Shown: positions 34,453 through 51,764 of the stretch, piece after piece
Position numbering within the stretch: position 1 is the first letter of the stretch
Layout: each line of letters opens with the position of its first letter
Assembly (NCBI GenBank): GCA_021776785.1
Contig: JAJFFF010000001.1
Coordinates: 187,129-251,128 of the forward strand
Direction of reading: 5' to 3'
From: Planctomycetota bacterium
GTDB taxonomy: Bacteria; Planctomycetota; PLA2
DNA length: 64,000 nucleotides
Notes under the pieces: generated by a model
Database searches by the model: none
What the model saw: only the letters and a program-made list of their open reading frames with translations
Told to the model about the DNA's origin: nothing
Translations under genes and position numbers: made by a program

Positions 34453-34464
34453 CGGTTCTCGCTT

Positions 34465-35223
34465 TTAGCTAGCCGCTCCGGCGAGCTCTTCGACCCAGCC
34501 GTAGCCCTTTTCTTCGAGCTCCAGCGCCAACTCCTTGCCGCCCGACTTCACGATGCGGCCTTGGTGCAACACGTGCACGTGATCCGGCACGATGTAGTTC
34601 AGCAAACGCTGGTAGTGGGTGATGACTAAGAATCCGCGATCCTTGTTGCGGAGACGGTTGACGCCGTCGGCGACGACGCGCAGCGCGTCGATGTCGAGGC
34701 CGGAATCCGTTTCGTCCAAGACGGCGAGCTTCGGATCGAGCACGGCCATCTGGAAGATCTCGTTGCGCTTCTTTTCGCCGCCCGAGAAACCCTCGTTAAC
34801 CGCACGCGACAAGAACTTCTCGTCCATATCGAGCTCTTTGGCTTTCGCCTTCGCGAGCTTTAGGAAATCGATCGCGTCCAGTTCTTCCAAGCCGCGCGCC
34901 TCGCGCACGGCGTTTACGCCCGCGCGCAGGAAGTAGCTGTTGGACACACCCGGAATCTCGACGGGGTACTGGAACGCCAAGAACAGGCCGGCGTGCGCCC
35001 GCGCGTCGGGAGCCATGTCGAGCAGGTCCTGGCCCAAGAAGTCGACGCTGCCTTCCGTGACTTCGTATTGGTCGCGTCCCGCCAGAACGCTGGCGAGGGT
35101 GCTCTTGCCGGACCCGTTCGGGCCCATGATGGCGTGCACTTCGCCCGCGTCGATGGAAAGGTTAATGCCGCGGAGGATCTCTGTGTCCTCGATACCGGCG
35201 TGCAAGTTGCTGATCTTGAGCAT
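34465..35223 (-). CDS. sufC: Fe-S cluster assembly ATPase SufC
   Basis: Walker A (GPNGSGKST), ABC signature (FSGGEKKR), Walker B ([12 protein letters not shown]) and the H-loop are all present. The start at 35223 is 3 nt after the sufB stop. Confidence 0.9.
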
Positions 35224-35225
35224 GA

Positions 35226-36674
35226 CTACCCTACGCTCCCTTCGAGGCTGATCCCCAGGAGCTTTTGTGCCTCGACCGCGAACTCCATCGGGAGCTCGCG
35301 GAAAACCTCTTTGCAAAATCCATTCACGATCATCGAGACGGCGTCTTCTTCCGAGATGCCGCGCTGCGCGCAGTAAAACATCTGGTCTTCGCCGATCTTG
35401 CTGGTCGTGGCTTCGTGTTCGACCTGTCCGGTCTTGTTGCGGACTTCGATGTAAGGAAACGTGTGCGCTCCGCACTTGTCGCCGATCAACATCGAATCGC
35501 ACTGACTGTAGTTCCGCGCGTTCTCCGCCTTGGGCATGATCTTCACGAGCCCGCGGTAAGTGTTTTGCGCTTTACCCGCGGAGATGCCCTTCGACACGAT
35601 CACACTGCGCGTGTTCTTGCCGATGTGGATCATCTTCGTGCCCGTGTCCGCCTGCTGGTAGTTGTTCGTGAGCGCAACCGAGTAGAACTCGCCGACGCTC
35701 TCGTCGCCCTGCAGGATGCAGCTCGGGTACTTCCAGGTGACTGCGGAACCGGTTTCAACCTGCGTCCAAGAGATCTTGCTCTTGAATCCGCGGCATGCAC
35801 CGCGCTTCGTAACGAAGTTGAAGATGCCGCCCTTGCCGTTCTTGTCACCGGGATACCAGTTCTGGACGGTGGAGTACTTGATCTGGGCGTTGTCGAGCGC
35901 CACGAGTTCGACAACGGCGGCATGCAGTTGGTTCTCGTCGCGCATGGGGGCTGTGCACCCCTCGAGATAGCTCACGTACGCGCCTTCTTCGGCGATGATG
36001 AGCGTGCGCTCAAACTGTCCCGTGTTGGCCGCGTTGATGCGGAAGTACGTGGACAACTCCATGGGGCAACGAACGCCCTTCGGGATGTAGACAAACGACC
36101 CGTCGGTGAACACGGCGCTGTTGAGCGCCGCAAAGAAGTTGTCGTTGCGCGGTACGACCGAGCCCACGTACTTCTTCACTAGTTCGGGGTGCTCGCGCAC
36201 GGCCTCGCCGAACGAGCAGAAGATGATGCCCTTCTCTTCGAGCGCGCCCTTAAACGTTGTGGCGACGGACACACTGTCAAACACCGCGTCCACGGCGACG
36301 CCCGCGAGCATCTTTTGTTCCGTGAGCGGGATGCCGAGTTTTTCATACGTAGCGAGCAGCTCGGGATCGACTTCGTCCAAGCTCTTCGGCGCGTTCGTTG
36401 TTTTCGGCGCGGAGTAGTAACACGCCGCTTGGTAGTCGATGGGCTCGTATTGGAGCTGAGCCCAATGGTGGGGCTCCTTCATCTTCTTCCACGCGGCGAA
36501 CGCTTCTAAGCGCCACTGCAGCATCCACTCGGGCTCTTCTTTTTTGGCCGAGATAAAGCGAATGGTCCCTTCGTCAAGCCCGACCGGAGCGGCGTCCGCT
36601 TCGATGTCGGTGACAAAGCCCCATTTGTAATCTTGATCGATCCGCTCTTGGATCGCGTCGTCGGTTGTCGACAT
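35226..36674 (-). CDS. sufB: Fe-S cluster assembly scaffold SufB
   Basis: 482 aa from ATG 36674 ([27 protein letters not shown]...). C-terminal ...[37 protein letters not shown]. Confidence 0.9.
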
Positions 36675-36679
36675 ACCTA

Positions 36680-37117
36680 CTAAACCTCCGCCGTCCGAGA
36701 CGAGAACGACATACCCGACGCCATCTCCGAGAGGGGGATGGCATCGAGCGCGTTTCGAACGGCCTGATTGATTCGTTGCCAGTTGGCGCGCGCCGGACAC
36801 GTTTTCTCGATGCCGCACGGGTCCGCTTCCAAGTCCAAGCACTCCGTGATCGCAATCGGCCCTTCCAGGGCGCACACGATCTCACGCACGGAGATGTTTT
36901 TGGGTTCGCGCGCGAGTGCGTAGCCGCCCTTGACGCCGCGATGCGATGTCAAAAGGTCCGCACGAGCGAGCGCTTTTAAGATCTTGCTCGTGGTCGGAAG
37001 CGGCAAGTTCACCATCTGCGCTAAGTCCCGCGCGTTGTGCACGGCGCTTCGCTCCTTCACCGCAAAATGGGTGAGGATGACGATGGCGTAGTCGGTTTGC
37101 TTGGTGATGCGCAGCAT
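36680..37117 (-). CDS. Rrf2-family transcriptional regulator (IscR/SufR-like, probable Fe-S sensing)
   Basis: The wHTH ([19 protein letters not shown]...) is followed by three clustered Cys ([16 protein letters not shown]). It is the first gene of the suf operon. Confidence 0.8.
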
Positions 37118-37387
37118 GAGTCGAATTCCGGCCCCAAAACCGCCCGTCAGCTCTCTCATGCTGACCCTCGCAGAAGTCGGCGAGGAAAAGAGGATGCTTT
37201 GGGTCCCGTTTCCAAGGGAACCCTATCAGGACCGCTCGAACCGTCAAATTATCGAGGGGCTTGTCGTCCCGACTTCCGAGAAGTCTAATTTCGATAAGTC
37301 CATGACCACAAAGTAGTTATGGAATTAGGACTGGTTAATTCCTCTTTTTGGGGCGCGGGCTTTTCGGGGGATTTCGCGCGGGCGGAT

Positions 37388-38479
37388 CTAGACGCCGGAC
37401 GACCACTCCAGCTGGAACTGTTTCGGGCCGTTTCCGGAGAGTTCATCGACGCGCGCTTTCACGCGGTCGGCGATATCGCCAAACGCCTTCGACGTAGCGC
37501 TCTCGGGGGCTGCGATGACGATCGGTTGACCGGTGTCGCCGCCCGGCGGCACGGCCGGATCGAGAGGGAGTTTGCCGAGCAGCGGAAGGCCGTATTGCTC
37601 GGCGGCTTTTTCGCCGGCGCCGCTCATGAAAATGTCGGTGATCTCACCGCACTTCGGGCACGCAAAGCCCGCCATGTTTTCCACGACGCCGATCACCGGC
37701 ACCTTCACGGCTTTAAACATCTCGATCGCTTTCAACACGTCGAGGAGCGCCACATCTTGCGGCGTGGTCACGACTACCGCGCCATCGAGCGGCACCGTTT
37801 GGCTCAGGCTCAACACCGCGTCGCCGGTGCCCGGCGGGAGATCGACAATCAAGTAGTCGAGTTCGCCCCACGCTACGCCCATCAGGAGCTGCTGCACCAT
37901 CTTGCCGACCATCGGTCCGCGCCAGACGACCGCGGCTTGATCCTTCGGCATGAGGAACGCGATCGAAATGACCGAGATGCCGTGCGTGTCCGCCGGGATC
38001 ACGCGCTGCTGCGCATCGCCGCGCGCTTTGTGACCGATGGTGCCGGTCATGATCGCCGCGCTCGGGCCGTAGATGTCGGCGTCGAGGAGCCCGACCTTGT
38101 GGCCCTTCTGCGCGAGAGCGACCGCCATGTTGACCGAGACCGTGGACTTGCCAACGCCGCCCTTGCCCGCGCCGACGGCGACGATGTGACGAATCGACTC
38201 CTTGAGTGCGGCGCCCGCCGCTTGCGGCGTGGGCGCGCCGCCCGTCCCTTCCCCGGCTTGTTGCGGGGGCTCGGCGAACGAGACAAAGACGTCCTTCACG
38301 CCTTCGATGGCCTTGATCTTCTCTTTGACGCGCCCGGCGAAGGCGGGTTTCTCCGCCAACGGAATCCGCATTTGCACGGTGATGAGAACTTTGCCGGCCG
38401 TTTCCTTAAACCCCGCGATTAGGTTCGGGGCGACGATGCCCTTGAGCGCGGCAGCGACCGCATCCAGTGTGATTGACAT
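37388..38479 (-). CDS. apbC: Fe-S cluster carrier ATPase ApbC/Mrp (NBP35 family)
   Basis: N-terminal DUF59-like domain, deviant Walker A (GKGGVGKSTVSVN) and CPKCG cluster motif. The ATG at 38479 overlaps the upstream stop. Confidence 0.85.
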   Translation of the reverse strand: MSITLDAVAAALKGIVAPNLIAGFKETAGKVLITVQMRIPLAEKPAFAGRVKEKIKAIEGVKDVFVSFAEPPQQAGEGTGGAPTPQAAGAALKESIRHIVAVGAGKGGVGKSTVSVNMAVALAQKGHKVGLLDADIYGPSAAIMTGTIGHKARGDAQQRVIPADTHGISVISIAFLMPKDQAAVVWRGPMVGKMVQQLLMGVAWGELDYLIVDLPPGTGDAVLSLSQTVPLDGAVVVTTPQDVALLDVLKAIEMFKAVKVPVIGVVENMAGFACPKCGEITDIFMSGAGEKAAEQYGLPLLGKLPLDPAVPPGGDTGQPIVIAAPESATSKAFGDIADRVKARVDELSGNGPKQFQLEWSSGV

Positions 38480-39312
38480 CAGACGGAAATCTCCTCGGTG
38501 ATCGCGAAGTCGCGGTCGCCACGATGAACGCGGCACGCGGTGGTCTTCGGGTCGTGTTCGAAAAACAAGATCCACTCCTCGTCCGCAGCGCGGCCGACCC
38601 ACGTCAGCTTTTCTTCCACGGTCTTGAGCGGTTCATTGTCGTACGCCATGACGTACGGCGTGCGTAGGTGCGACGTGGTCGGAACCAGGTCGGCGGTGTA
38701 GAGCAACGACTGCGCGCCGTCGCTCACTTTGACAAGTTGCATGGCGGGCGTGTGCCCGTCCACGGGAAGCACTTCGATGCCGTCGGCGATCTCGGCGCGG
38801 CCGTCGATCAATTCGAGGCGATCCTCGCGATACAGCGGCATGAAGTCGTCGGGCCGAAAACTGCCGCCGTCTTTCAGACTCGGCTCGCGCGCCCACTCGA
38901 ACTGACGACGTTGCACGTGATAGCGCGCGTTCGGAAAGACCGCGTTGCCGTCGGCGCGCGTCGATCCGCCGCCGTGGTCAAAATGCAGGTGTGTCAGCAA
39001 CACGTCGGTAATCGTTGCGGGATCAAACCCGGCGGCTTGCAGCGCGACGTCGGGAAGCATGGTTCCTTGCAGGTTGTAGATGCCGTTCAGCTTGTCGCTG
39101 AACTTGTCTCCGATGCCCGTGTCCACCAGCCATGTGCGGTCCGGCCCCTCGATGAGGAGAAGGCGCATCGCGAGTTCGATCCGGTTGCGTTCGTCAGGCG
39201 GATTGGACCGCTCCCAAAGCGGGCGCGGCACAATTCCCAGCATCGCGCCGCCGTCGAGGCCAAAAAGCCCGCTGGGGATGGAGTGAACGCGATATTTTCC
39301 GATCTGAAGCAC
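38479..39312 (-). CDS. MBL-fold metallo-hydrolase
   Basis: THLHFDHGGG (HxHxDH) with downstream His/Asp ligands. Confidence 0.75.
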   Translation of the reverse strand: MLQIGKYRVHSIPSGLFGLDGGAMLGIVPRPLWERSNPPDERNRIELAMRLLLIEGPDRTWLVDTGIGDKFSDKLNGIYNLQGTMLPDVALQAAGFDPATITDVLLTHLHFDHGGGSTRADGNAVFPNARYHVQRRQFEWAREPSLKDGGSFRPDDFMPLYREDRLELIDGRAEIADGIEVLPVDGHTPAMQLVKVSDGAQSLLYTADLVPTTSHLRTPYVMAYDNEPLKTVEEKLTWVGRAADEEWILFFEHDPKTTACRVHRGDRDFAITEEISV

Positions 39313-39450: not shown

Positions 39451-40326
39451 TTGGGGACTTCCTTGAAGATTACGCGGCGGAGATTTTTGCACGGCGTCGG
39501 TGGGGGCATCGTGGCGGGCGCGGCCTATGCGGTCGGCGTGGAGCCCTCGTGGCTCGACGTGACAGAGCGCGCCCTGGCGGTGCCCGATTTGCCGCGTGCG
39601 TTCGACGGATACCGGATCGCGCACCTGAGCGACCTCCACCTCGGCGGCGGCGTGCCGGCGTCCTTGCTGGAGCGAGCCGTCCGCGCCGCGACCGCGTTCG
39701 AGCCGGACCTGGTTGTGGTGACCGGCGACGTGGTGGATGACGGCGGCCCCGATGCGCCGCTTGCCGACGTGACCGCGGTGCTCGGCGAGTGCCACGGCAA
39801 GGACGGTGTCTTGTGCACGCTCGGCAACCATGACACAACCTCGTTTCGCGAAGGCGGGCAGTTGTGTGAGCACGCGGTGGCGCGCCTTCGCGCGGCGATC
39901 GAAGGCGGCGGCGCCGACCTGTTGCGCAATCGCTTTGTTCGCGTGCGGCGCGGTCGTGACGCGTTGCGGGTGGTCGGGTTGGGCGACCTGTGGAGCGGTG
40001 ATTTCGAACCGGCGACGACGCGCGTGCACGAGCCCGATGGCGTGACGGTGGCGTTGTCGCACAACCCGGACACAGCACCCGAATTGGCGCGGCGCGGTGC
40101 CAAGATCATCCTGTCGGGGCACACTCACGGCGGGCAGGTGTGCGTCCCGTTTTACGGGCCGCCTTGGATTCCCTTGCGGCATCCGGAGTACCTCGCGGGG
40201 CGTTTTGACGTCGGTGCCGCGCAGCTCTACGTCAACCGCGGCTTGGGGTTCTCGCATCGCGTGCGTTTCCGGGCGCGGCCAGAAACGACGCTGCTTACAC
40301 TGCGCCGAGCCAACCGTCCCGCATGA
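39451..40326 (+). CDS. Tat-secreted calcineurin-like metallophosphoesterase
   Basis: Twin-arginine motif (TRRRFLHG). Phosphoesterase motifs GDVVDDG, GNHD, GHTHGG. Confidence 0.75.
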   Translation: MGTSLKITRRRFLHGVGGGIVAGAAYAVGVEPSWLDVTERALAVPDLPRAFDGYRIAHLSDLHLGGGVPASLLERAVRAATAFEPDLVVVTGDVVDDGGPDAPLADVTAVLGECHGKDGVLCTLGNHDTTSFREGGQLCEHAVARLRAAIEGGGADLLRNRFVRVRRGRDALRVVGLGDLWSGDFEPATTRVHEPDGVTVALSHNPDTAPELARRGAKIILSGHTHGGQVCVPFYGPPWIPLRHPEYLAGRFDVGAAQLYVNRGLGFSHRVRFRARPETTLLTLRRANRPA

Positions 40327-41032
40327 CGGGAACCACGGCCAGCGCATTCCACGCGCTTGCCAAGGCTACGTCTTCGGCGAACCCGCGTTCTCTCAGCTCG
40401 CGCCCGCTCGCGCATTCCGCCATGACGTCCTCCAACCGGTTGCGCTGACTCCAAAACGCGGCCTCGCAGACGGCGGCCTCCGGCGACCGCGTGCCCGGTA
40501 ACTTCGCGATCACCGCGCCCGCGCCGAGATAGTCTTCAAGGCTGACGCGCAACGTGTCGTCTTGCCAGCGTTCCCCGCACGCGAGCACCGTGATGGTTGT
40601 GCCGCCCGCGCCGGCGTGGCGTGCCGCCGCATCGGCGTTGACCAGGCCCGCGACGATGAGTGCCGGGACGCTCGGCGCGGCGGCACAACACGTGGCGCCG
40701 TTGGGCGAAGCCAAAACGATCCGTGCGCCGCGGGGCGCGTTCCGCATGGACACGGGCGATAGCGAGAACCCATCCGGTTGGTTCTGCGCTTCCTCCCGCG
40801 AGACCGCACCGATCGCCCCTTCCCGGGCGGTCACAGCCACTCGATCCTCATCCCAGGCGCAGGGGCGCACCGTGGCGCCGGCGGCGACCGCGTAGGCGAC
40901 CGCCGACGAAAAGCTCAACACGTCCACGACGATGAGAACGTCTTTTTCGGCAGCGGCCGCGAGCGCTCCGCGGCGGCCCCAGCGGAGGCGCACGTCAAAC
41001 CCGTGCTGCCCTGTCCAAATCGGATCGCCCAT
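40295..41032 (-). CDS. 2-phosphosulfolactate phosphatase (ComB)-like protein
   Basis: LIVVDVLSFSSAVAYAVAAGA...GERWQDDTLRVSLEDYLGAGAVI resembles the ComB family. Start taken at the internal ATG 41032. Confidence 0.45.
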   Translation of the reverse strand: MGDPIWTGQHGFDVRLRWGRRGALAAAAEKDVLIVVDVLSFSSAVAYAVAAGATVRPCAWDEDRVAVTAREGAIGAVSREEAQNQPDGFSLSPVSMRNAPRGARIVLASPNGATCCAAAPSVPALIVAGLVNADAAARHAGAGGTTITVLACGERWQDDTLRVSLEDYLGAGAVIAKLPGTRSPEAAVCEAAFWSQRNRLEDVMAECASGRELRERGFAEDVALASAWNALAVVPVMRDGWLGAV

Positions 41033-41168: not shown

Positions 41169-44100
41169 ATGACGAAAAGCCGAGCTGCGGGGCGCAACCC
41201 GCGCGACTATTTTTATGGCGACGTGATGCGCCTCCCTCCGGGGACGCGCAACCCCGATCACTACACGCTGTTGGGCCTTCGTTTTTTTGAGGATGACCAC
41301 GACACGATCCTGCGCGGCTCGCTCGAACGCATTCGCCTTCTGGAGACGTGTCAGGTGGACCCGCGGCCGGGCTATCGCAAGATGGCGGAACGTCTTTTGG
41401 TCGAAGTCCGTGACGCGCAACTCACGCTTCTCGACTCGAAAAAACGCAGCGACTACGACGCCGCGTTGATCGGTCGCCAGGAACTGGCGCGCAAGGAGCA
41501 AGGGATCGACGAAGATGTGCAGCTGCCCGTCGGCTCGATGTTTCACGATCGGTATCGCATCCTGCGGGAGGTGCGCGTAGGCGGGCTCGGTTCGGTGTAC
41601 GAAGCGATGGATCGCAACCTGCGTGCGAAGGTCCATATAAGCGTGCTGCGACCGTCGCTTTCGCGCGATCGTTCGTTGCGTCGCCCCATCGAGAACGAAG
41701 CGCGCAAGGGGGTCACGACGCAACACGCGAACCTGCTGCGTCTGGATGAGATTGGCGACGCGGGCGGCGTGTTCTTTGTCCGCAGCCGCGCGCACGAGTC
41801 CAAGAGTCTGCGGCAAGTGTTGGAGCTGCAGGAGTCCGGGCGGTTGGATGCGGACGAGGTTTGGCGTATTGGACGGGAAGTGTTGGCGGCATTGCGGCCG
41901 ATTCACGACATCGGTGGCGCGCACGGTCGGCTGCGACTGGACAACGTGCTGATCGGTGGCGACGGAAGCGTTCTCGTGTCCGACGCATTTATCGCGCGCG
42001 CCGTCGCCGACGCGATTGCGCAGCAACCGGGACCGGAGGCGACTCCGGCGGGCGACATCGCGGCGTTGGGGGTCTTGCTTTATCGGCTCTTGACCGGCAA
42101 GCAATTCCGGCGGGACGACGGCGCCGCCGCGTATCCCGAAGAGACGCCGTCGCGCTTGATCGAGGCGATGGGGGCCCTGCTCGCGCCGGACGCGCGCCGC
42201 CCGACCGATGCGAAGGCGGCGGCGGGATGGTTCGTCGAAACGCCCGAGCTGCCTGACGGCAAAGAGATTCCGTGGAAGTGGGTCGCGATCGCGGCGAGTG
42301 TGGTCGCTCTCATACTCATGCCGTTTGCATTTCGTTCGGGCGGCGACAACGCCAACGGCGGCGACGAGTCGTCGGCTCTCGAGGCGCGAAGCTGGCGATC
42401 GCTTGCCGAGGGGCGCTACGAAGCGGTCATCGCGTCTCTGCAAGGCCAACACGATCGGGCGCTGGTGGTCGCGCTTGCACGCGCGTACGAGTCCGCGGCG
42501 AGAGACGATGAAGCGAGGGGCAACGTGTGGCGGGCGCAGCAACGCCTTGCGCACGCGCAGAAGCTGGAGCCGAATTCCCGACGCGAGCGCGCCTACGCGC
42601 GCGTTGCGGCGATCGCGCAGTCCAAGTTGGACGCACTTGTATTGCCGGACGACAAGCCCCGGCAAGAAGCGGTGTTCTCGTTGGATGTGCGCGCTGCGCA
42701 CCTAGCGATCGTCCGCCTCGGCGGCGAGGAACTCGATCTCACCAGCGGGGTCGCGTCCAAGCGGTTGTCCCTGGGCGAGGGCGAGCATCGTCTGGCGTGC
42801 GAGCTTGTCGATGTGGCCGGCAACAAGCGGACGGAGACGGTCGTCTTCGCGGTGGATCGCACTCCGCCCAGCATTGTCATCGAGTCGCCGGAAGATGGCG
42901 CGCGACTGACCAAGCAGACGATTCCGGTCGTGCTTCGCGTGAAGGAGAAGCATCCGCGTGAGCATTTGCGGGTCCAGGCCGTGCCTGTGGCTTGGACCGG
43001 GGCCGCGATCAAAACGTCGGTGACGTTTAAGGACGGCAATCACTCGGTTGTCGTGGAGGCGACCGATGCGGCTGGCAACATCGCCACCGCCACCGCGCGC
43101 GTCATCGTTGACACGCTGGGGCCTAAGATTCAACTCACGACACGGCGCGTTGTCACCAAGAGTGGCCGCGCGGAGATCGTCGGGCGCGTCACCGGTCGCG
43201 TGAGCGCTCTTCGCATTGACGGCCGCAACGTCTCTTACGACGCCGACGGGTCGTTTACGCATGCACTGGACGTGATGCGTGATCGGACGATCAAAGTCGA
43301 AGCGCAAAGCGCGTCGGGCCTGACCGATGCGGCCGACGTCGTGATTTTGTTCGATCAGATCGCACCGCAGATTGCTGCGAACCCGCGCCGCACCGACAAA
43401 GATGGGCTCGTCCTGTACGGGTCGCGTGAGATCGCGGCCAAGGAAGTGGCCGTCGGACTTCGGGTCAAAGACAAAACGGAACTTCGCTTTGAAACCAAGC
43501 ACGGTCGCATTGCAAACGGAAGTTGGTTCGTGCCCACGCGCGGCGGGCGCCATCGCGCCAAACTCACCGTCATCGACGAAGCCGGGTGGCGTTCGAGCTT
43601 GGAGATTGAACTCGAAGGACGCGCAGGGAGACCGAAGCTGCAGGTGAAGTGTGCGCTCGACGAGGGGTTCGTTTCCGACCGCGATGTTGTTTTGGACATT
43701 GATTCCGACGGACCGGTGCTGGTGCAGGGGCAACAACGGCGAGCCGGTCGCATCCGGTTGCCGCTCAAGGAGGGCTCCGTGTCGGTCTCCGTCGTCCGGC
43801 GCGATCGGTACGGAAACGAGGCGGAGTGGAAGCGCGAGTTCCATGTCGATCGCACGCCGCCCGAGCTCAAGTTGCTCGGGGGCAGCGAGTTCGGCATGGT
43901 GAACCAAAAGATCCGTTTTCGCGCGAACGAGCCGCTCCGCGAAGTTCGTTGCGTCGGCAAAGTGTTTTCGGCCAACTCCAACGACGTCGAGGTGGACGCT
44001 GAATTGGGTCCCGGCAAACGTACGATTTCCGTGTTGGCGCGCGACCGCGCCGGTAATCAGTCGAGGACGAAGTTCAACATCGAAGTCGTGAACCACGTCC

Positions 44101-44714
44101 TGCGCTTGGGCGGCAAGGGAGCGGTGAAGATCCCTTTTCCGGCCAAGCTGTCGATGTCGAAGTTCACCATCGAGTGCTGGGTGCGCGGTACCGCACCGGT
44201 GCGCACGATGGTGATCTTGAGCAACTATTTCGACGGCGGGGCGGCGCTCGTGTGGTCGCACAACGCCAGCGGCCCTTACGCGGTGTGGCTCGATCCGGTC
44301 CACGGACGTCAGACGATCGAGCACGCGCGGCCGTGGCGGTGGGACGAGTGGACGCACTTGGCGCTTTGCGGCGACGGGCGCAAAGTACGATTCTTCGTCG
44401 ATGGAAGCTTGCAGGGTTCGTTCGTTTCGCGCACGCCGTGGAAGCCGAGCTCGAAAGGGTTTCTCGTCGGCGGCGACCCGGACGCGCGCCGCGTGGCCCG
44501 TAACCACTTTGCGGGCGAAGTCGACGAAGTGCGCATCTCCTCGTCGGCCCGTTACACGCGCGCGTTTACGCCGCAACGGCATTTCAAGACCGACGACAAG
44601 ACCCACGTCCTGTTGCGTTTCGATTCCGGTGACAAACGCCAATTGCGAGACGCGTCCGGCAACGGCCGCCACGGCGAAGTCGTTGGTGAAGTGCAAACCG
44701 TGCGTTCGCCCTAA
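41169..44714 (+). CDS. large transmembrane protein: cytoplasmic degenerate Ser/Thr kinase-like (pseudokinase) domain, one TM helix, extracellular bacterial Ig-like repeats, C-terminal LamG/concanavalin-A-like domain
   Basis: Kinase-like core with a Gly-rich loop (VGGLGSVYEA) and Lys (AKVHISVL). The catalytic loop HGRLRLDN lacks the HRD Asp, and DAF replaces DFG. TM helix WKWVAIAASVVALILMPFAF. Repeated VD.AGN..T..V.F.VD.T.P Ig-like units. The LamG-like C-terminus has FTIECWVR...WTHLALCGDG...FFVDGSL...FAGEVDEVRIS. Confidence 0.65.
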   Translation: MTKSRAAGRNPRDYFYGDVMRLPPGTRNPDHYTLLGLRFFEDDHDTILRGSLERIRLLETCQVDPRPGYRKMAERLLVEVRDAQLTLLDSKKRSDYDAALIGRQELARKEQGIDEDVQLPVGSMFHDRYRILREVRVGGLGSVYEAMDRNLRAKVHISVLRPSLSRDRSLRRPIENEARKGVTTQHANLLRLDEIGDAGGVFFVRSRAHESKSLRQVLELQESGRLDADEVWRIGREVLAALRPIHDIGGAHGRLRLDNVLIGGDGSVLVSDAFIARAVADAIAQQPGPEATPAGDIAALGVLLYRLLTGKQFRRDDGAAAYPEETPSRLIEAMGALLAPDARRPTDAKAAAGWFVETPELPDGKEIPWKWVAIAASVVALILMPFAFRSGGDNANGGDESSALEARSWRSLAEGRYEAVIASLQGQHDRALVVALARAYESAARDDEARGNVWRAQQRLAHAQKLEPNSRRERAYARVAAIAQSKLDALVLPDDKPRQEAVFSLDVRAAHLAIVRLGGEELDLTSGVASKRLSLGEGEHRLACELVDVAGNKRTETVVFAVDRTPPSIVIESPEDGARLTKQTIPVVLRVKEKHPREHLRVQAVPVAWTGAAIKTSVTFKDGNHSVVVEATDAAGNIATATARVIVDTLGPKIQLTTRRVVTKSGRAEIVGRVTGRVSALRIDGRNVSYDADGSFTHALDVMRDRTIKVEAQSASGLTDAADVVILFDQIAPQIAANPRRTDKDGLVLYGSREIAAKEVAVGLRVKDKTELRFETKHGRIANGSWFVPTRGGRHRAKLTVIDEAGWRSSLEIELEGRAGRPKLQVKCALDEGFVSDRDVVLDIDSDGPVLVQGQQRRAGRIRLPLKEGSVSVSVVRRDRYGNEAEWKREFHVDRTPPELKLLGGSEFGMVNQKIRFRANEPLREVRCVGKVFSANSNDVEVDAELGPGKRTISVLARDRAGNQSRTKFNIEVVNHVLRLGGKGAVKIPFPAKLSMSKFTIECWVRGTAPVRTMVILSNYFDGGAALVWSHNASGPYAVWLDPVHGRQTIEHARPWRWDEWTHLALCGDGRKVRFFVDGSLQGSFVSRTPWKPSSKGFLVGGDPDARRVARNHFAGEVDEVRISSSARYTRAFTPQRHFKTDDKTHVLLRFDSGDKRQLRDASGNGRHGEVVGEVQTVRSP

Positions 44715-45607: not shown

Positions 45608-46123
45608 ATGAGGTTGGTGTATTTGTTGCGTCACGGCATCGCGATCGATCGGACCCATCCCGATTGCCCGCGCGATTCAAAACGGGCACTGACGGCCAAG
45701 GGCCACCGCCGCACCGTCGATGCCGTGCGCGGACTTGCGACCATGGGCGTGACGGCGACCGCCATGGCGGCGAGCCAGTATGCGCGCGCCATGGAAACCG
45801 CGACGATAGCCCAGCGTGGTTTGGGGTTATCCGCGGAGATCCAAGCGTGGCCGGACCTTGAGCCGTCGGGCGCCGTCGCGGCCACGGCGCGTCGCCTGAT
45901 GGCGAGCACGGACGGACCGATTTTAGTGGTCGGGCATGCGCCGCATCTCGATCACGTGATCGCCACGCTCACCCAGGCGCGCGTCCGCCTCAAAAAAGCT
46001 GGCGCCGCGTGCGTTGACCTCGATGACCGCCGTCTGGTGTGGCTCATGGAGCCGCGCGCTTTGCGCAAGCTCGGCACGCGGTCGTCCAACCAGGAGAGCG
46101 AATCGAATGAGGCGCCCGTTTGA
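45608..46123 (+). CDS. sixA: phosphohistidine phosphatase SixA (histidine phosphatase superfamily)
   Basis: MRLVYLLRHGIAID carries the RHG catalytic motif. ~170 aa. The stop overlaps the ppx start. Confidence 0.7.
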   Translation: MRLVYLLRHGIAIDRTHPDCPRDSKRALTAKGHRRTVDAVRGLATMGVTATAMAASQYARAMETATIAQRGLGLSAEIQAWPDLEPSGAVAATARRLMASTDGPILVVGHAPHLDHVIATLTQARVRLKKAGAACVDLDDRRLVWLMEPRALRKLGTRSSNQESESNEAPV

Positions 46124-47613
46124 GCGAAAAACAAGTACCGCCCGCGCCGCTGGCGGCCGTCGATCTCGGCTCCAATAGCTTCCACCTGGTTGTTGCGCGC
46201 TTTGTGAAAGGCGAGACAGAGGTCGTGGACCGACTGCGAGAACAGGTGCAACTGGCGGCAGGATTGGACGAGAAGCATCACCTGCAGAAACGCGTCCGGA
46301 AGCGCGCGCTCGCCGCGCTTGAACGATTCCGTGAGCGCCTGCGCGGCGTGCCGCGTGCACGGTTGCGCGCGGTCGGCACGAACACGTTTCGAAAAGTTCG
46401 CGACGGCGGTCGCTTTCGTGTGGATGCTGAGGCGGCGCTCGGCTGCCCGATCGAAATTCTGAGTGGCCCGGAAGAGGCGCGATTGATTTTTCACGGCGTC
46501 GCGCACTCGATGCCGCCCGAGGACGGCGACATGCTTGTCGTCGACATCGGGGGGGGCAGCACCGAGTGCATTCTCGGCGCGGGCTTTGACGCGCGCCTCG
46601 TCCAGAGCGTGCAGCTGGGATGCGTGAGTCACACGCAGCGCTTTTTTGCGGACGGCGTCATGAAACGTTCGCGGTTTCGCGAAGCGATCATGGCGGCCCG
46701 TGTGTCGTTGCGCGACGTGGAGCGTCAATTCAGCGAACGCGAATGGACTCGTGTCGTGGGGGCGTCCGGCACGATCCGCGCAGCACTCCAGGTGGCGCGC
46801 GAGTGCGGGTGGGCCGATCGCACACTCGGGCGTGACAGTCTCAACGAACTCCAGGAGGCGTTGATCGACGCGCGCCATGTCGAAGACCTCGATCTTCCTG
46901 GGCTCAAGTCGGAGCGCGCGTCGGTCCTGGCAGGCGGCGTGGCCGTGTTGCGGGCGGTGTTCGATGCGCTCCACATCGAAGCGATGCAAGTCGCATCGGG
47001 TGCGCTGCGCGAAGGGATTCTGTACGACCTCGTCGGGCGGTTGGGCCATGACGATGTTCGCGATCGATCGATCGAGAAGCTGCAGCGCCGTTTCGATGTT
47101 GATCTAACGCAGGCGCAACGCGTCCGCACGACCGCATTGGAAATCCTGAGCGAGGTTGCGCGTCCGTGGAGGCTCGACAAGGAGTGGGCCACGTCCTATC
47201 TGTCTTGGGCGAGTTCACTCCACGAGATCGGACTCGCCATCTCGTATGTGAAACATCAAAAGCACGGGGCGTATCTGATCGGCGAGTCTGAGCTCTCCGG
47301 TTTTTCCCGCGACGACCGCCAAGTGCTGGCGGCGATGGTCGCGTGTCACCGCGGGCCGTCGCGCCACGAGCTGTTTTTAGAACTTCCCAAACGCGTGGCG
47401 CGCGCCACACGGCGCATGACGGCAATCTTGCGCTTGGCTGTCCGCATGCGGCGCGGGCGCGGCGGTGGCTTACCCGCTTTCTCGGTTGACGCCGGCCGCG
47501 ATCGTATTGGGTTGGATCTGGTGGACGGATTCGCAGCGCACCCGCTTCTACAACGCGACCTGCAAAAAGAGGTTGGTCGACTCCAACAGCTTGGCGTCGT
47601 GTTGGAGATCTGA
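46120..47613 (+). CDS. ppx: exopolyphosphatase / guanosine pentaphosphate phosphohydrolase (Ppx/GppA)
   Basis: AAVDLGSNSFHLVVARF...AVGTNTFR...VVDIGGGSTE is the ASKHA fold of the Ppx/GppA N-domain. A C-terminal HD-like domain follows. Confidence 0.85.
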   Translation: MSEKQVPPAPLAAVDLGSNSFHLVVARFVKGETEVVDRLREQVQLAAGLDEKHHLQKRVRKRALAALERFRERLRGVPRARLRAVGTNTFRKVRDGGRFRVDAEAALGCPIEILSGPEEARLIFHGVAHSMPPEDGDMLVVDIGGGSTECILGAGFDARLVQSVQLGCVSHTQRFFADGVMKRSRFREAIMAARVSLRDVERQFSEREWTRVVGASGTIRAALQVARECGWADRTLGRDSLNELQEALIDARHVEDLDLPGLKSERASVLAGGVAVLRAVFDALHIEAMQVASGALREGILYDLVGRLGHDDVRDRSIEKLQRRFDVDLTQAQRVRTTALEILSEVARPWRLDKEWATSYLSWASSLHEIGLAISYVKHQKHGAYLIGESELSGFSRDDRQVLAAMVACHRGPSRHELFLELPKRVARATRRMTAILRLAVRMRRGRGGGLPAFSVDAGRDRIGLDLVDGFAAHPLLQRDLQKEVGRLQQLGVVLEI

Positions 47614-48418: not shown

Positions 48419-49330
48419 CTAGCGCGAGACGAGTGTCTGCGCCCACCGTGCAAACTGACGGAGGTCGGAGAAATACTCGATGCCGCGCGGCCCGCGCCGC
48501 GTGCCGCGCGCTCCCACACCGCCGACGACCAACTCGCATGCCGCGGGCAAACTCTGACGGAGCAGAGCCAGCTGGCGATCGGTTTCGATGCCGGCGGACG
48601 AGAGTGAAACGCCGATGCCGACGGCCTTGGCGTCGCATTCCTGCGTGGCGGCGACGGTCTCCGCGATCGGTGTGCAGCGTCCGAGAATATGCGGACGTAC
48701 TCCAACCGTTGTGGCTGCGACCGCACACATCTGCACCCCGAGCCCGTGTTCCTCATCCGGAAGCGTTGCGAGAACGATCGTCGGAGACTTGAATGAGACT
48801 TCGAACTCGCTGCGCAACCGGCGCAAAAAGTCCTGCATCACTTCGGTCACGAAATGCTCGTGCCGAATCTTTAATGTTCCGTCGCGCCAGAGCGCCCCGA
48901 CGCGCGTGAGCAACGGTGCGACTCGCTGATCGAGAAGACGAACAGCTCCCATCGAACGATAGGCGTCTCGAAGCAGCCCGACCAGAGTGATCGCGTCATA
49001 CGTGCGGACCATCTGCACCATCGCCTGGATTTCAGGAGTACTGCTCGACGGTTCCGGATCGGGTTCGCGGGCGACGAGGGCGGCCAGCTCTTCGTCGGAA
49101 GAGCGCACAACTTTCCCCGGGCGGTTGCCGCGCTGCAGAGCCTCCGCAACGCGTCGCAACCACGCGAGGTGATCGTCGTTGTAGCGCCGATGGCCGGACG
49201 GGAGCCGGATCGGAACCGGCTTGCCGTAGCGCCGCTCCCAAACTCGAATCGTGTCCGAGGAGATCCCTGTCGCTTTGGCAAGTTGCCCAATCGACATCAA
49301 GTCAGCGGTGTTCACTTCTGTACTGTCCAT
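48419..49330 (-). CDS. MerR-family regulator with C-terminal cobalamin-binding domain (CarH/LitR-like light-responsive repressor)
   Basis: N-terminal MerR HTH (MSIGQLAKATGISSDTIRVWERRYG). C-terminal B12-binding domain with the DxHxxG motif (LPDEEHGLGVQM). The start is ambiguous: ATG 49330 or 49297. It is divergent from the ybgA-like/photolyase operon. Confidence 0.75.
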   Translation of the reverse strand: MDSTEVNTADLMSIGQLAKATGISSDTIRVWERRYGKPVPIRLPSGHRRYNDDHLAWLRRVAEALQRGNRPGKVVRSSDEELAALVAREPDPEPSSSTPEIQAMVQMVRTYDAITLVGLLRDAYRSMGAVRLLDQRVAPLLTRVGALWRDGTLKIRHEHFVTEVMQDFLRRLRSEFEVSFKSPTIVLATLPDEEHGLGVQMCAVAATTVGVRPHILGRCTPIAETVAATQECDAKAVGIGVSLSSAGIETDRQLALLRQSLPAACELVVGGVGARGTRRGPRGIEYFSDLRQFARWAQTLVSR

Positions 49331-49395
49331 TAATTTCCATGATTGTCCAATAAAAAACATAGACATAGGGCCTGGAGACCGGAACATGACTCGTC
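49300..49395. promoter_or_regulatory. AT-rich divergent promoter/operator region between the CarH-like gene and the YbgA-photolyase operon
   Basis: It contains tgtccattaatttccatgattgtccaataaaaaacatagacatag, which stands out against a ~68% GC background. TGTCCA occurs twice as a direct repeat. Confidence 0.4.
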
Positions 49396-50361
49396 ATGGG
49401 TCTGCAAGTCTCTGGACGACCGCGGTTGGGAATCAGCAGTTGTCTGCTCGGCGAAAAAGTTCGCTTCAACGGTGGTCACAAGCGGGACCGGTACCTCACC
49501 GACACTTTGGGCGCGTTGTGCGACTGGGTCATGGTGTGTCCGGAAGTCGAACTCGGCCTCGGTTCGCCGCGCGAGACGCTCCGTCTGGTCGGTGACCCCA
49601 CGCAGCCGCGGCTACATGAGCCGGCGACCGACATCGATCGGACGCGCGCGATGCATCGGTTTGCCGGTGACCGCGCGCGGGCGTTACGCGTCGAGGGCTT
49701 GCACGGGTTCGTGTTCAAAAAAGACTCCCCAACGTGCGGGATGGCGCGCGTGAAGGTTTGGCACGAGAGCGGCGGCGGATCGGAACGCAAAGGTGTCGGC
49801 CTGTTCGCCGCCGCAGTCATGAAAGCGTTTCCGCTCCTCCCTTGTGAAGAGGAGGGGCGGCTCCATGACATGCCGTTGCGCGAGAACTTTATCGAGCGCG
49901 TGTTTTGCTACCAGCGGTGGCGCGATTCGTTTGACAAGCGCGTGCGTCGCGGAAACTTGGTTGCGTTTCACACGGCGCACAAGCTGACGCTCATGGCGCA
50001 CTCGCCGGTGCGCTACCGAGAACTTGGTCGCATCGTCGCCGCGCTCGGAACGCGTCCGTTGCGTGAAGACATCGATGCGTACGGAGAACAGTTCATGGAA
50101 GCACTTCGACTGCTGGCGACGCGCCGCAAGCACACCAACGTCTTGCAGCACATCGCCGGATACTTCAAACGAAAGATCGACTCCGATGATCGTACCGAAC
50201 TCGCCGGTTGCATCGAGGACTACCACGCGGGAAGCGTGCCGTTGATCGTCCCGCTCACGTTGGTCCGTCATCACCTGCGCCGCCATCCCGACGCCTGGTT
50301 GGAGTGCCAGACTTATCTTCACCCGTACCCGGCGGAGCTCATGCTTCGTAACCACGTATGA
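49396..50361 (+). CDS. DUF523 (TudS-like) + DUF1722 (YbgA-like) fusion protein
   Basis: N-terminal LGISSCLLGEKVRFNGGHK is the DUF523 Cys-rich signature. The C-terminal half resembles YbgA, the gene found upstream of phr in E. coli. It overlaps the photolyase start. Confidence 0.7.
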   Translation: MGLQVSGRPRLGISSCLLGEKVRFNGGHKRDRYLTDTLGALCDWVMVCPEVELGLGSPRETLRLVGDPTQPRLHEPATDIDRTRAMHRFAGDRARALRVEGLHGFVFKKDSPTCGMARVKVWHESGGGSERKGVGLFAAAVMKAFPLLPCEEEGRLHDMPLRENFIERVFCYQRWRDSFDKRVRRGNLVAFHTAHKLTLMAHSPVRYRELGRIVAALGTRPLREDIDAYGEQFMEALRLLATRRKHTNVLQHIAGYFKRKIDSDDRTELAGCIEDYHAGSVPLIVPLTLVRHHLRRHPDAWLECQTYLHPYPAELMLRNHV

Positions 50362-51764
50362 GCCGTTCAACACCGCCTGCGCGCGTGCGCGTCGTACAGG
50401 ATGCGCCGCTCCGGCCGACCGGGGATTTCGTACTGTATTGGATGATCGCGACGCGCCGCACGACGTCGAACTTTGCGCTTGATCGTGCGGTGGAGCACGC
50501 CGCGGCGCTCAAGAAACCGATCGTCGTGCTCGAGCCGCTCCGCGCGGGGTACCGCTGGCGCAGCGACCGGATCGATACGACGCTCGTCGCCGGAATGTCC
50601 GACAACGCGCGTCGCTTCGCGGGCGAGCCCGTGGCGTATTACCCCTATGTCGAGCCCGAGGCCGGTGCGGGCCAGGGGCTGCTCGCAGCGCTGGCGGAGC
50701 GCGCCTGCGTTGTCATCACGGATGACTTCCCGTGCATATTTTTGCCGCGCATGGTGCGCGCGGCCGGCGAGCAGCTGTCGGTGCGGTTAGAAGCCGTCGA
50801 TTCCAACGGAATCGTGCCGATGCGATCGACGCCGGATGCGTTTCCCACGGCGTACTCGTTCCGGCGGTACTTGCATCGGAATCTCTCGCCGTACTTGGGC
50901 GAGGCGCCCTATGCTCGCCAACGTGTGGCCGGCGTGGCTCCGCGCATCGAGCTGCCGCCCGCGGTCGTGAAGCGGTGGCCCCTCGCGTCGCTGGAATCCG
51001 TGCCGCCGCGCGGCGCTACCGCGGCGCAGCAAACGCTCGTCGACTTTTTAGCGCGCTTGGATCGTTACGGCGATGATCGCAACTCGCCGGAAAACGACGC
51101 GACGAGCGGCCTCTCCTCGGCCCTTCACTTCGGCCACATCTCACCGCATGAGATCTTTCACGAACTCGCGGACCAAGAGGATTGGACGCCCGACGATCTG
51201 GCGGACACCGTCAAGGGCAACCGCGCGGGTTGGTGGGGGATGAGCGAATCCGCGGAGGGGTTCCTCGACCAGCTCATTACGTGGCGCGAGCTCGGCTACA
51301 ACATGTGCGTGCACCGACCGGACGACTACGACCGATACGAGTCACTCCCGTCTTGGGCGCAAGTAACACTTGAGGCGCATGCCGGAGACGAACGCGAGTT
51401 TGTGTACACGCTCGAGCAATTCGACACGGCGCAGACGCACGATCCGATCTGGAACGCGGCCCAAACGCAACTCCGCCGCGAGGGGCGCATTCACAACTAC
51501 CTGCGCATGCTCTGGGGCAAAAAGATCCTGGAGTGGACGGCGTCCCCGCGCGACGCGCTCGCCGTGATGATCGAGCTCAACAACAAGTACGCGCTCGACG
51601 GCCGCAACCCAAACTCGTACAGCGGGATCTTTTGGTGCCTGGGTCGGTACGACCGCGCCTGGGGTCCGGAGCGTCCGATCTTCGGCAAGATTCGCTACAT
51701 GAGCTCGGACAACACGCGGCGCAAGTACAAGCTCAAGAGCTACTTGGAAGCGTACAGCTCCTGA
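50358..51764 (+). CDS. phr: deoxyribodipyrimidine photolyase, class II CPD type
   Basis: FVLYWMIATRRTTSNFAL is the class II N-terminal signature. The C-terminal FAD-binding region has RMLWGKKILEW...GIFWCLGRYDRAWGPERPIFGKIRYMS. Confidence 0.85.
   Translation: MSRSTPPARVRVVQDAPLRPTGDFVLYWMIATRRTTSNFALDRAVEHAAALKKPIVVLEPLRAGYRWRSDRIDTTLVAGMSDNARRFAGEPVAYYPYVEPEAGAGQGLLAALAERACVVITDDFPCIFLPRMVRAAGEQLSVRLEAVDSNGIVPMRSTPDAFPTAYSFRRYLHRNLSPYLGEAPYARQRVAGVAPRIELPPAVVKRWPLASLESVPPRGATAAQQTLVDFLARLDRYGDDRNSPENDATSGLSSALHFGHISPHEIFHELADQEDWTPDDLADTVKGNRAGWWGMSESAEGFLDQLITWRELGYNMCVHRPDDYDRYESLPSWAQVTLEAHAGDEREFVYTLEQFDTAQTHDPIWNAAQTQLRREGRIHNYLRMLWGKKILEWTASPRDALAVMIELNNKYALDGRNPNSYSGIFWCLGRYDRAWGPERPIFGKIRYMSSDNTRRKYKLKSYLEAYSS

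Follow-up and report, generated by a model that had tools for sequence, protein, structure and literature searches.

The gene described here occupies positions 41169..44714 (+, stop codon included) of a 64,000-nucleotide stretch of contig JAJFFF010000001.1 from a Planctomycetota bacterium, and this whole stretch is referred to below as the window. The protein of 1181 amino acids (aa) that it encodes is best interpreted as a bitopic inner-membrane pseudokinase of the receptor type, which would act as a non-catalytic scaffold or allosteric receptor between the periplasm and the cytoplasm; the probability that we assign to this interpretation is roughly 0.55. From its N-terminus, the protein is made up of a J-like domain, a Hanks-type pseudokinase domain, a single transmembrane (TM) helix, six immunoglobulin (Ig)-like repeats and a Laminin_G_3 (LamG) domain. 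In an earlier account based only on the DNA and its translations (viz. the sequence-only reading), a gene of the same length and limits was described as encoding a kinase-like part, one TM helix, Ig-like repeats and a LamG domain. Both the gene and this layout are upheld by the open reading frame (ORF) and the starts of the homologues, with the J-like domain to be added at the N-terminal end. That account was correct on the identity of the pseudokinase but it is incomplete, as the replacement of the β3 Lys by Ser158, the shortened activation segment and the J-like domain were overlooked in it. The ORF is intact over its 3.5 kb. Its longest reading ending at 44714 starts at 40932, but the homologues all begin at or after the ATG at 41169 (MTKSRAAGRNPRDYFYG...), a start that agrees with nine full-length or partial homologues, and an identical protein is called on a 16.6-kb Logan contig (run SRR15505517). 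All coordinates quoted here were re-translated and checked.

The assignment of residues 122-345 (41532..42203, +) to the Hanks-type (ePK-like) kinase fold is clear, as the similarity to known kinases is far above chance. The NCBIfam PknB_PASTA_kin model matches residues 122-312 with an E value of 5.8e-23, phmmer matches StkP among the sequences in the Protein Data Bank (PDB) with an E value of 2.5e-17, and PknB of Mycobacterium tuberculosis is matched by BLASTP (E 3e-15). The concern stated in the sequence-only reading, that the kinase similarity might be below significance, is removed by these values. Structure prediction, which was also called for, gave an AlphaFold2 (AF2) model of residues 1-372 with a predicted local distance difference test (pLDDT) value of 84.8, and in Foldseek comparisons its kinase fold is close to PknA, PknI and PknB (E about 1e-15 to 1e-11; TM-score 0.65-0.77). 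The outcome of the profile scan that had been suggested was divided: the Laminin_G_3 and Ig-like (Glucodextran_B/Big_13) families pass their cut-offs, whereas Pfam PF00069 (Pkinase), at 30.5 bits, falls slightly under its gathering cut-off of 31.7. Precomputed PF00069 matches are carried by relatives of this protein in which the catalytic loop reads HGD. The Stk1/PknB PASTA kinase model NF033483 scores 81.7 bits against a cut-off of 450 and covers only the kinase N-lobe and a part of the C-lobe, and no PASTA repeats were matched in the protein by the Pfam and NCBIfam scans. Matches to the anti-phage defence system PD-T4-6 in PADLOC, with E values down to 8.5e-26, are confined to the kinase core (residues 121-319) and, like the match to the defence system MADS6, reflect generic kinase-core similarity; a membership in PD-T4-6 was rejected because the catalytic residues are missing and the architecture is different.

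The alignments to StkP and PknB are ungapped across the N-lobe and again across the catalytic/DFG region, and due to this the register of the residues is firm. The β3 (VAIK) Lys, viz. K40 of PknB and K42 of StkP, corresponds to S158 (41640..41642, +), the HRD motif (H136-R137-D138 of PknB) to H252-G253-R254, K140 to R256, N143 to N259, and the DFG motif starting at D156 of PknB to D272-A-F. The sequence-only reading had pointed to the segments HGRLRLDN (41922..41945, +) and DAF (41982..41990, +) and had stated that the catalytic Asp is missing; these segments align without gaps to HRDLKPxN and DFG, respectively, of StkP and PknB, and the statement holds. Further, R136 occupies the position of the first Gly of the G-loop, and the activation/P+1 segment is shorter than that of PknB by about 18 residues. 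Among the three residues on which the competence of a Hanks kinase depends, the β3 Lys and the HRD Asp are both replaced and the DFG Asp is retained (D272). A pseudokinase is defined as a kinase fold lacking at least one of the K/D/D residues (bioRxiv 10.1101/2025.01.12.632604), and judged from the aligned residues the protein is a pseudokinase in this sense, as two of the three are substituted here and one of the three throughout its family. It is unable to serve as a canonical phosphotransferase, because the β3 Lys, the HRD Arg and Asp and the DFG Gly are lost and the activation segment is shortened. It was also considered, as the sequence-only reading had advised, whether an intact catalytic Asp is present in a shifted register. 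The nearby D258 lies four residues past the HRD position and fills the slot of the Glu in KPEN; the residue at this position varies among the family members (D/D/H/H/S/K/Q/H/H), while H252, G253 and L255, which anchor the catalytic loop, are invariant or nearly so. A shifted catalytic Asp was thus rejected.

Relatives of this protein are very few. A search of 5.8 billion sequences retrieved only nine full-length or near-full-length relatives (36-53% identity), and wherever the source of these is named it is a Planctomycetota metagenome-assembled genome (MAG). A profile of the cytoplasmic half adds three fragments; the next matches, at 138 bits as opposed to 374, are ordinary PASTA-type kinases. 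An exhaustive HMMER search over 1.84 billion cluster representatives gave about six full-length clusters and fragments, the remaining matches being giant multi-Ig proteins or generic kinases, and three loci, all in Planctomycetota MAGs, were found in a scan of GTDB species genomes. The family is thus very small (about 15 sequences), undescribed and known from Planctomycetota only. One sequence related to it, P0137 (L006 1067..~2640), matches the family only up to about residue 245 and is methyltransferase-like thereafter within a single 524-aa ORF; it is found in one MAG and could have arisen by a frameshift or as an assembly chimera, or the protein may truly be truncated.

The catalytic positions were audited in 16 family sequences, whereas the conservation of the dimer residues and of the J loop discussed below was read from an alignment of 13 sequences. 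In all 16 sequences the β3 position is Ser or Thr, the first Gly of the G-loop is Arg and the HRD Arg is Gly. The G-loop residues G138 and G141 do not vary. Fifteen of the 16 lack the DFG Gly (the exception, P0245, reads EFG), and the DFG Asp is present in the same number (Glu in P0245), without exception among the first nine members. In 14/16 the catalytic Asp persists in the form of HGD; HGR is found only in the window protein and its nearest relative, P0002, and these two also share the sequence HGRLRL, the change of LRP to LRL and the shortest activation segment in the family. The family as a whole can therefore be described as Lys-less pseudokinases, among which the lineage of the window protein went one step further and lost the catalytic base. 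The conservation within the family is not uniform along the protein. Mean pairwise identity is 64% in the J-like domain, 53% in the pseudokinase and 34-51% in the ectodomain modules, including 40% in the membrane-proximal region (residues 391-485); the proportion of invariant columns in the cytoplasmic modules is 22-34%, and the J-like domain, with 34%, is the most conserved part of the protein. That the cytoplasmic modules outrank the ectodomain in conservation points to a selected function in the cytoplasm. Further, R128, L151 and E194 are invariant in the 13-sequence alignment and stand in register with R10, L33 and D76 of PknB, of which L33D and D76A are the standard mutations breaking the back-to-back N-lobe dimer of PknB/StkP (PMC13434768).

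The most conserved part of the protein, viz. an N-terminal helix and the J-like domain (residues 10-101; 41196..41471, +), was recognized from its predicted structure. The AF2 model of residues 1-114 has a pLDDT of 89.5, with helices at residues 11-19, 31-34, 44-63, 69-88 and 90-111, and the J-domain fold in it spans residues ~22-101. The best 16 Foldseek matches of this segment in the PDB are all J-domains, including those of DNAJC12, Tid1 (TM-score 0.76; root-mean-square deviation (rmsd) 2.6 Å), HscB (rmsd 1.8 Å) and Escherichia coli DnaJ. At the level of sequence the relationship is marginal: in a search of the PDB with a profile of residues 1-114 the J-domains of DnaJ rank first with E values of 0.1-0.8, the hhalign match to the J-domain is likewise marginal, and no match of the protein to PF00226 was found at E <= 10. 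The protein thus has the four-helix J fold and lacks the HPD motif, whose three residues align to Q62-V63-D64 (41352..41360, +) and to x-[A/V]-D in most family members. A family-specific loop, C-x-x-D-x-R-P, stands where HPD would be, and in the 13-sequence alignment its C61, R66 and P67 never vary and D64 rarely does, although this loop is divergent in the two most divergent family members. The helix-II arginines R49 and R54, as well as the Asp of HPD, are conserved. In every system tested, Hsp70 is no longer stimulated once the HPD His is replaced by Gln (PMC8215388), and since it is Gln that takes this position here, a canonical co-chaperone activity is unlikely. A specific link to HscB, suggested by its place among the J-fold matches and by the Fe-S genes located nearby, is not favoured, as the similarity to HscB is no better than that to other J-domains. 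The J-like domain is joined to the pseudokinase by a flexible acidic linker (residues 102-121; 41472..41531, +) with a pairwise identity of 30% and a pLDDT of <50 for residues 103-113. An N-terminal J-like module with the pattern 'Y..WL.IPPG..PPDHYTLLGL' recurs in dozens of small proteins of 100-200 aa (P0079-P0134). These are planctomycetal wherever the source is named, and a TM helix comes after the module in several of them; HPD is intact and PF00226 (DnaJ) is matched in some, but not in others. This module looks like a lineage-specific, uncharacterised family of membrane-associated J or J-like proteins.

The pseudokinase is followed by a juxtamembrane segment (residues 346-369) and the TM helix (residues ~370-390), which together correspond to 42204..42338 (+). 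The residues 370-390 form a single hydrophobic segment, the sole Kyte-Doolittle window with a value >1.4, and in the relatives the residues just N-terminal to it are strongly basic (e.g. RRRSKRLPLL and KRRRTRL); because the basic residues cluster on this side of the helix, an N-in/C-out topology is predicted. Planctomycetota are diderm, and the ectodomain is due to this expected to be periplasmic rather than truly extracellular. The membrane-proximal periplasmic region (residues 391-485; 42339..42623, +) matched no Pfam family, and from its sequence it looks helical and TPR-like. It is followed by the six Ig-like β-sandwich repeats (residues 486-977; 42624..44099, +), a region covered by matches to Glucodextran_B (three stretches), Big_13, BiPBP_C and HYR. 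The Glucodextran_B and Big_13 matches score 60.1 bits each against a gathering score of 27, and the bacterial Ig-like nature of this region is thus clear. A self-BLAST of the ectodomain for internal repeats gave nothing, and the six repeats were delimited by the periodicity of a motif, as each repeat of ~80 aa ends with a D-x-A-G-N-type motif (at residues 548, 633, 713, 803, 879 and 959) and then VDxxPP. The LamG domain (residues 978-1130) and the C-terminal tail (residues 1131-1181) together span 44100..44711 (+). PF13385 (Laminin_G_3) matches residues 981-1128 with an E value of 1e-18 and 68.4 bits against a cut-off of 27.6, which places this domain in the family, and the LamG region of pappalysin-2 is matched weakly (E 0.005). 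The fold is that of the concanavalin A-like lectin superfamily, and sugar binding by it is putative. One TM helix, Ig-like repeats and a C-terminal LamG domain are what the sequence-only reading had stated for this half of the protein, and the hydropathy and the Pfam matches above cut-offs agree with it. The tail after the LamG domain (44559..44711) carries a conserved motif 'LLRFD...DxSGxGxHG' (here 'LLRFD...DASGNGRHG'), which we take to resemble the strand pair usually preceding Laminin_G_3 domains; it may represent a circular permutation, or a C-terminal strand completing the sandwich.

On the interpretation favoured here, the LamG head would bind a ligand in the periplasm or the envelope, for which a glycan is the most plausible candidate, and the head would be held by the stalk of six Ig-like repeats, the length of which is estimated at ~20 nm. 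Ligand-dependent clustering would then bring together the N-lobes of the pseudokinase, the partner being either another copy of the same protein or an active Hanks kinase whose gene lies in another part of the genome. The pseudokinase would in this process act as an allosteric regulator or a scaffold and not as an enzyme, and the HPD-less J-like domain would be a conserved docking or output module instead of an activator of the Hsp70 ATPase. We infer the non-catalytic scaffold role, and the conservation within the family strengthens it. Several points weigh against this interpretation. At the orthologous loci, genes for kinases, FHA proteins or DnaK/chaperones are not consistently adjacent. 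The conservation of the dimer residues is equally expected from a PknB-like ancestry, and the AF2 models were built on nine sequences only. Further, the retained DFG Asp, together with conserved R136, R152 and R256 replacing the Lys, could permit nucleotide binding, a substitution of Lys by arginine having been proposed for the DLHK and ULK4 pseudokinases (PMC12599244), and the presence of the catalytic Asp in most relatives may indicate that the family was once, or still is, weakly active.

The alternative that survives best, though we consider it rather improbable, is that this is a structural protein of the envelope, in which the Ig stalk and the LamG domain hold in place or arrange a polymer of the periplasm or the cell wall, while the cytoplasmic part serves only to anchor or oligomerise the protein and transmits no signal. 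It accords with the giant multi-Ig, adhesin-like proteins being the best relatives of the ectodomain outside the family, with the lack of any signalling partner conserved nearby, and with an envelope-type phosphoesterase gene of the YaeI/LpxG-like kind being kept close in 5/6 loci. However, the J-like domain and the pseudokinase are more conserved than any module of the ectodomain, and this is unexpected for a mere anchor. A bolder form of the receptor interpretation, which as a whole must be regarded as unlikely, is that the family represents a Planctomycetota-specific class of receptor pseudokinases, in which a glycan sensor formed by the LamG domain and the six Ig repeats signals via the HPD-less J-like domain and not by phosphorylation. 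As with Pam16, the J-like output would in this case sequester or regulate a partner, e.g. a genuine pair of J-protein and Hsp70, and such an output, if true, would be a mode not described for bacterial Hanks-type receptors.

It is quite unlikely that the protein is an atypical active enzyme or a nucleotide-binding switch, which would hold ATP via R136, R152, R256 and the DFG Asp, or would carry out another chemistry such as AMPylation of the SelO type. Precedents for atypical modes are known in WNK, POMK, ULK4 and, as proposed, DLHK (PMC12599244), and the DFG Asp invariant in the first nine members, the invariant G138 and G141 with the invariant Arg at the first G-loop Gly, and the HGD in 14/16 sequences all fit with it. 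However, in the window protein Arg takes the place of the catalytic base, the Asn that would bind metal lacks conservation among the family members, the segment comprising P+1 and the activation loop is truncated and no compensating Lys is conserved. Still less probable is a role as a membrane-tethered co-chaperone, whose J-like domain would recruit DnaK or another Hsp70, e.g. for secreted or envelope proteins, with the pseudokinase as a client or adaptor module. Although the J fold is confident by AF2 and Foldseek, the HPD Asp and the helix-II residues R49 and R54 are conserved, and related planctomycetal modules with an intact HPD and PF00226 matches exist, the His-Pro of the motif is Gln-Val here and x-Ala/Val in most of the family, and the loss of Hsp70 stimulation upon the His to Gln change in all tested systems (PMC8215388) speaks against it. 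That the gene is a decaying relic, viz. a pseudogenised kinase devoid of function, is extremely improbable, because despite the extra losses in the window protein and P0002 (the catalytic Asp, LRP to LRL, the shorter activation loop) the ORF is intact over 3.5 kb, identity across MAGs is 36-53% from end to end, and 22-34% of the columns in the cytoplasmic modules are invariant.

Among known systems, the closest functional analogue of the proposed receptor pseudokinase would be the pseudokinase and carbohydrate-binding module of M. tuberculosis MviN (MurJ, Rv3910), belonging to the ActPs3 family. The MviN pseudokinase is phosphorylated by PknB, recruits FhaA and acts as a scaffold, and it dimerises through residues analogous to the back-to-back ones of PknB (PMC12599244). 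In common with MviN/ActPs3, the present protein has an intracellular Hanks-fold pseudokinase followed by TM sequence and an extracytoplasmic β-sandwich of the sugar-binding type, as well as an activation-loop deletion and the Leu/Asp equivalents of the back-to-back N-lobe dimer. However, in ActPs3 all three catalytic motifs are lost, the activation-loop deletion is of ~40 residues and the ATP pocket is filled by aromatic residues; further, ActPs3 is actinobacterial, fused to the MurJ flippase and without a J-like domain or an Ig stalk, whereas in the planctomycetal family described here the DFG Asp is retained, mostly along with the HRD Asp, and the protein is bitopic and stands alone. Judged by the family description, the protein thus falls outside ActPs3 in its motif losses and in its ~18-residue shortening, and agrees with it in the dimer residues.

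By both sequence and structure, the nearest relatives of the kinase domain are the PASTA/PknB-StkP-type receptor kinases (KAPD family), with which the protein shares the order of kinase, juxtamembrane segment, one TM helix and repeated extracytoplasmic domains, and the same dimer-interface residues. The features which are these kinases' own, viz. enzymatic activity with an intact K/D/D set, an activation loop open to phosphorylation and PASTA repeats, are all missing here. M. tuberculosis PknI, which is among the top structural matches (E ~1e-13; TM-score 0.72-0.75), is a low-activity, pseudokinase-like receptor kinase; its catalytic Lys and Asp are still present, it lacks a J-like domain and its ectodomain is of another kind. 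With Tim16/Pam16, the 'class IV' J-like proteins, DnaJ, HscB and Tid1, the N-terminal part shares the four-helix J fold and its hairpin of helix II, loop and helix III, and the HPD signature is missing as in Pam16. It differs from these J and J-like proteins in being fused to a pseudokinase and in that no membership in their sequence families was detected. The sole solved structures aligning over both modules (~370-410 columns) are those of the DnaJB1-PRKACA (J-PKAc) chimera of fibrolamellar carcinoma. However, this chimera arose by accident in humans as an oncogenic fusion, its kinase is active and its HPD is intact, and the likeness to it (rmsd 26 Å overall) should be interpreted as architectural only. 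The ActPs1, ActPs2, GLW, CP1, DYD and DLHK families are characterized by traits such as GLW in place of HRD, a β3 Arg together with DYD, attached COG3899 or helicase domains, and the lack of a TM segment in CP1 and DLHK, whereas HGD/HGR, a β3 Ser, DAF/DFC, one TM helix and a J-like domain are found here. Based on their descriptions, none of the seven published families of bacterial pseudokinases fits this protein, and Planctomycetes, DnaJ and LamG are mentioned in neither of the two papers on them. A literature search on planctomycete pseudokinases and J-domain fusions likewise revealed nothing relevant.

In the sequence-only reading the architecture was called eukaryote-like and rare outside a few social or predatory bacterial lineages, and this claim is not correct. 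A C-terminal TM segment after the kinase domain is the commonest layout of bacterial serine/threonine kinases, being found in 25 of 42 families, and 28 of the 42 are membrane-associated (bioRxiv 10.1101/2025.01.12.632604), and this order is the reverse of that in eukaryotic receptor kinases. Rarity can be claimed for the family itself and for its fusion with a J-like domain. Very little work has been done on bacterial pseudokinases, and none of the seven families classified so far is planctomycetal or has this architecture. The family forms a natural series, from members in which the Lys is lost and HGD is kept to two members in which the catalytic Asp is lost as well, and the conversion of a receptor kinase into a scaffold could be traced along it. 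Further, it is unusual for a crippled J-domain to be fused to a pseudokinase, this domain is the most constrained part of the protein, and an explanation of this module may also explain the many small planctomycetal membrane proteins that carry the 'PPDHYTLLGL' module. The practical impact is modest until a ligand or a partner is found.

The genes upstream of the pseudokinase gene comprise sufBCD, an Mrp/NUBPL ATPase, a YtnP-like metallo-β-lactamase (MBL)-fold lactonase, a metallophosphoesterase and a ComB-like gene. The Fe-S assembly block (SufD-like, SufC, SufB-like and then the Mrp/NUBPL P-loop ATPase) extends over 33184..38602 (-) and is syntenic with that in the related loci L001 and L003, with Rrf2 added in both of them and NifU and rhodanese genes in L003. 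The calcineurin-type phosphoesterase (39451..40326, +) is YaeI/LpxG-like and scores below the NCBIfam cut-offs; a gene of this kind is found within 0-2 genes upstream of the pseudokinase in 5/6 loci examined, which include L003, L004, L006 and L008, and in L006 it immediately precedes the pseudokinase gene, in the same orientation and ~65 bp away. The divergent ComB-like neighbour reported in the sequence-only reading is real (2-phosphosulpholactate phosphatase family; 40295..41032, -; PF04029, E 4.7e-25; 245 aa as called on the Logan contig), and all NCBIfam 2-phosphosulfolactate phosphatase models remain below their cut-offs for it. A functional link to these two neighbours was rejected; the phosphoesterase looks YaeI/LpxG-like and unlike a PPP protein phosphatase. 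The block from suf through mrp, MBL, metallophos and comB to the pseudokinase is partly syntenic in the relatives, whereas the downstream genes differ at every orthologous locus, and the upstream synteny is read as inherited gene order and not as an operon.

Of the two kinds of partner proposed in the sequence-only reading, an active Ser/Thr kinase is not encoded in the window, as a catalytic-loop regular expression and PknB-type phmmer searches applied to all ORFs of at least 80 aa found only the present gene. The FHA-GAF-PP2C gene does exist at 3333..5015 (+), with matches to its three domains (SpoIIE, E 1e-42; GAF, E 1e-14; FHA, E 1.5e-9), and it indicates that Ser/Thr phospho-signalling exists in this genome; as a partner it is unsupported, being 36 kb away with nothing linking the two. 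An unrelated FHA gene is present near the orthologue in L002 only. Active-looking Hanks kinases are located a few genes downstream of the orthologues in L001 (11078..19081; a 713-aa Pkinase+TPR protein and an 1888-aa Pkinase+AAA_16+SBP_bac_5 protein) and in L008 (14765..17383; an 872-aa Pkinase protein), and such kinases are not found in the window. Downstream of the present gene are a convergent gene for a TroA-like binding protein, a SixA-like phosphohistidine phosphatase (59 bits against a cut-off of 74.5) and a Ppx/GppA exopolyphosphatase; the last two overlap by 4 nucleotides (45608..47613, +) and are probably co-transcribed. A candidate light-response cluster at 48419..51764 consists of a MerR-family regulator with B12-binding domains (CarH-like, -), a DUF1722/2-thiouracil-desulfurase gene and a weakly matching photolyase FAD-binding-domain protein (+).

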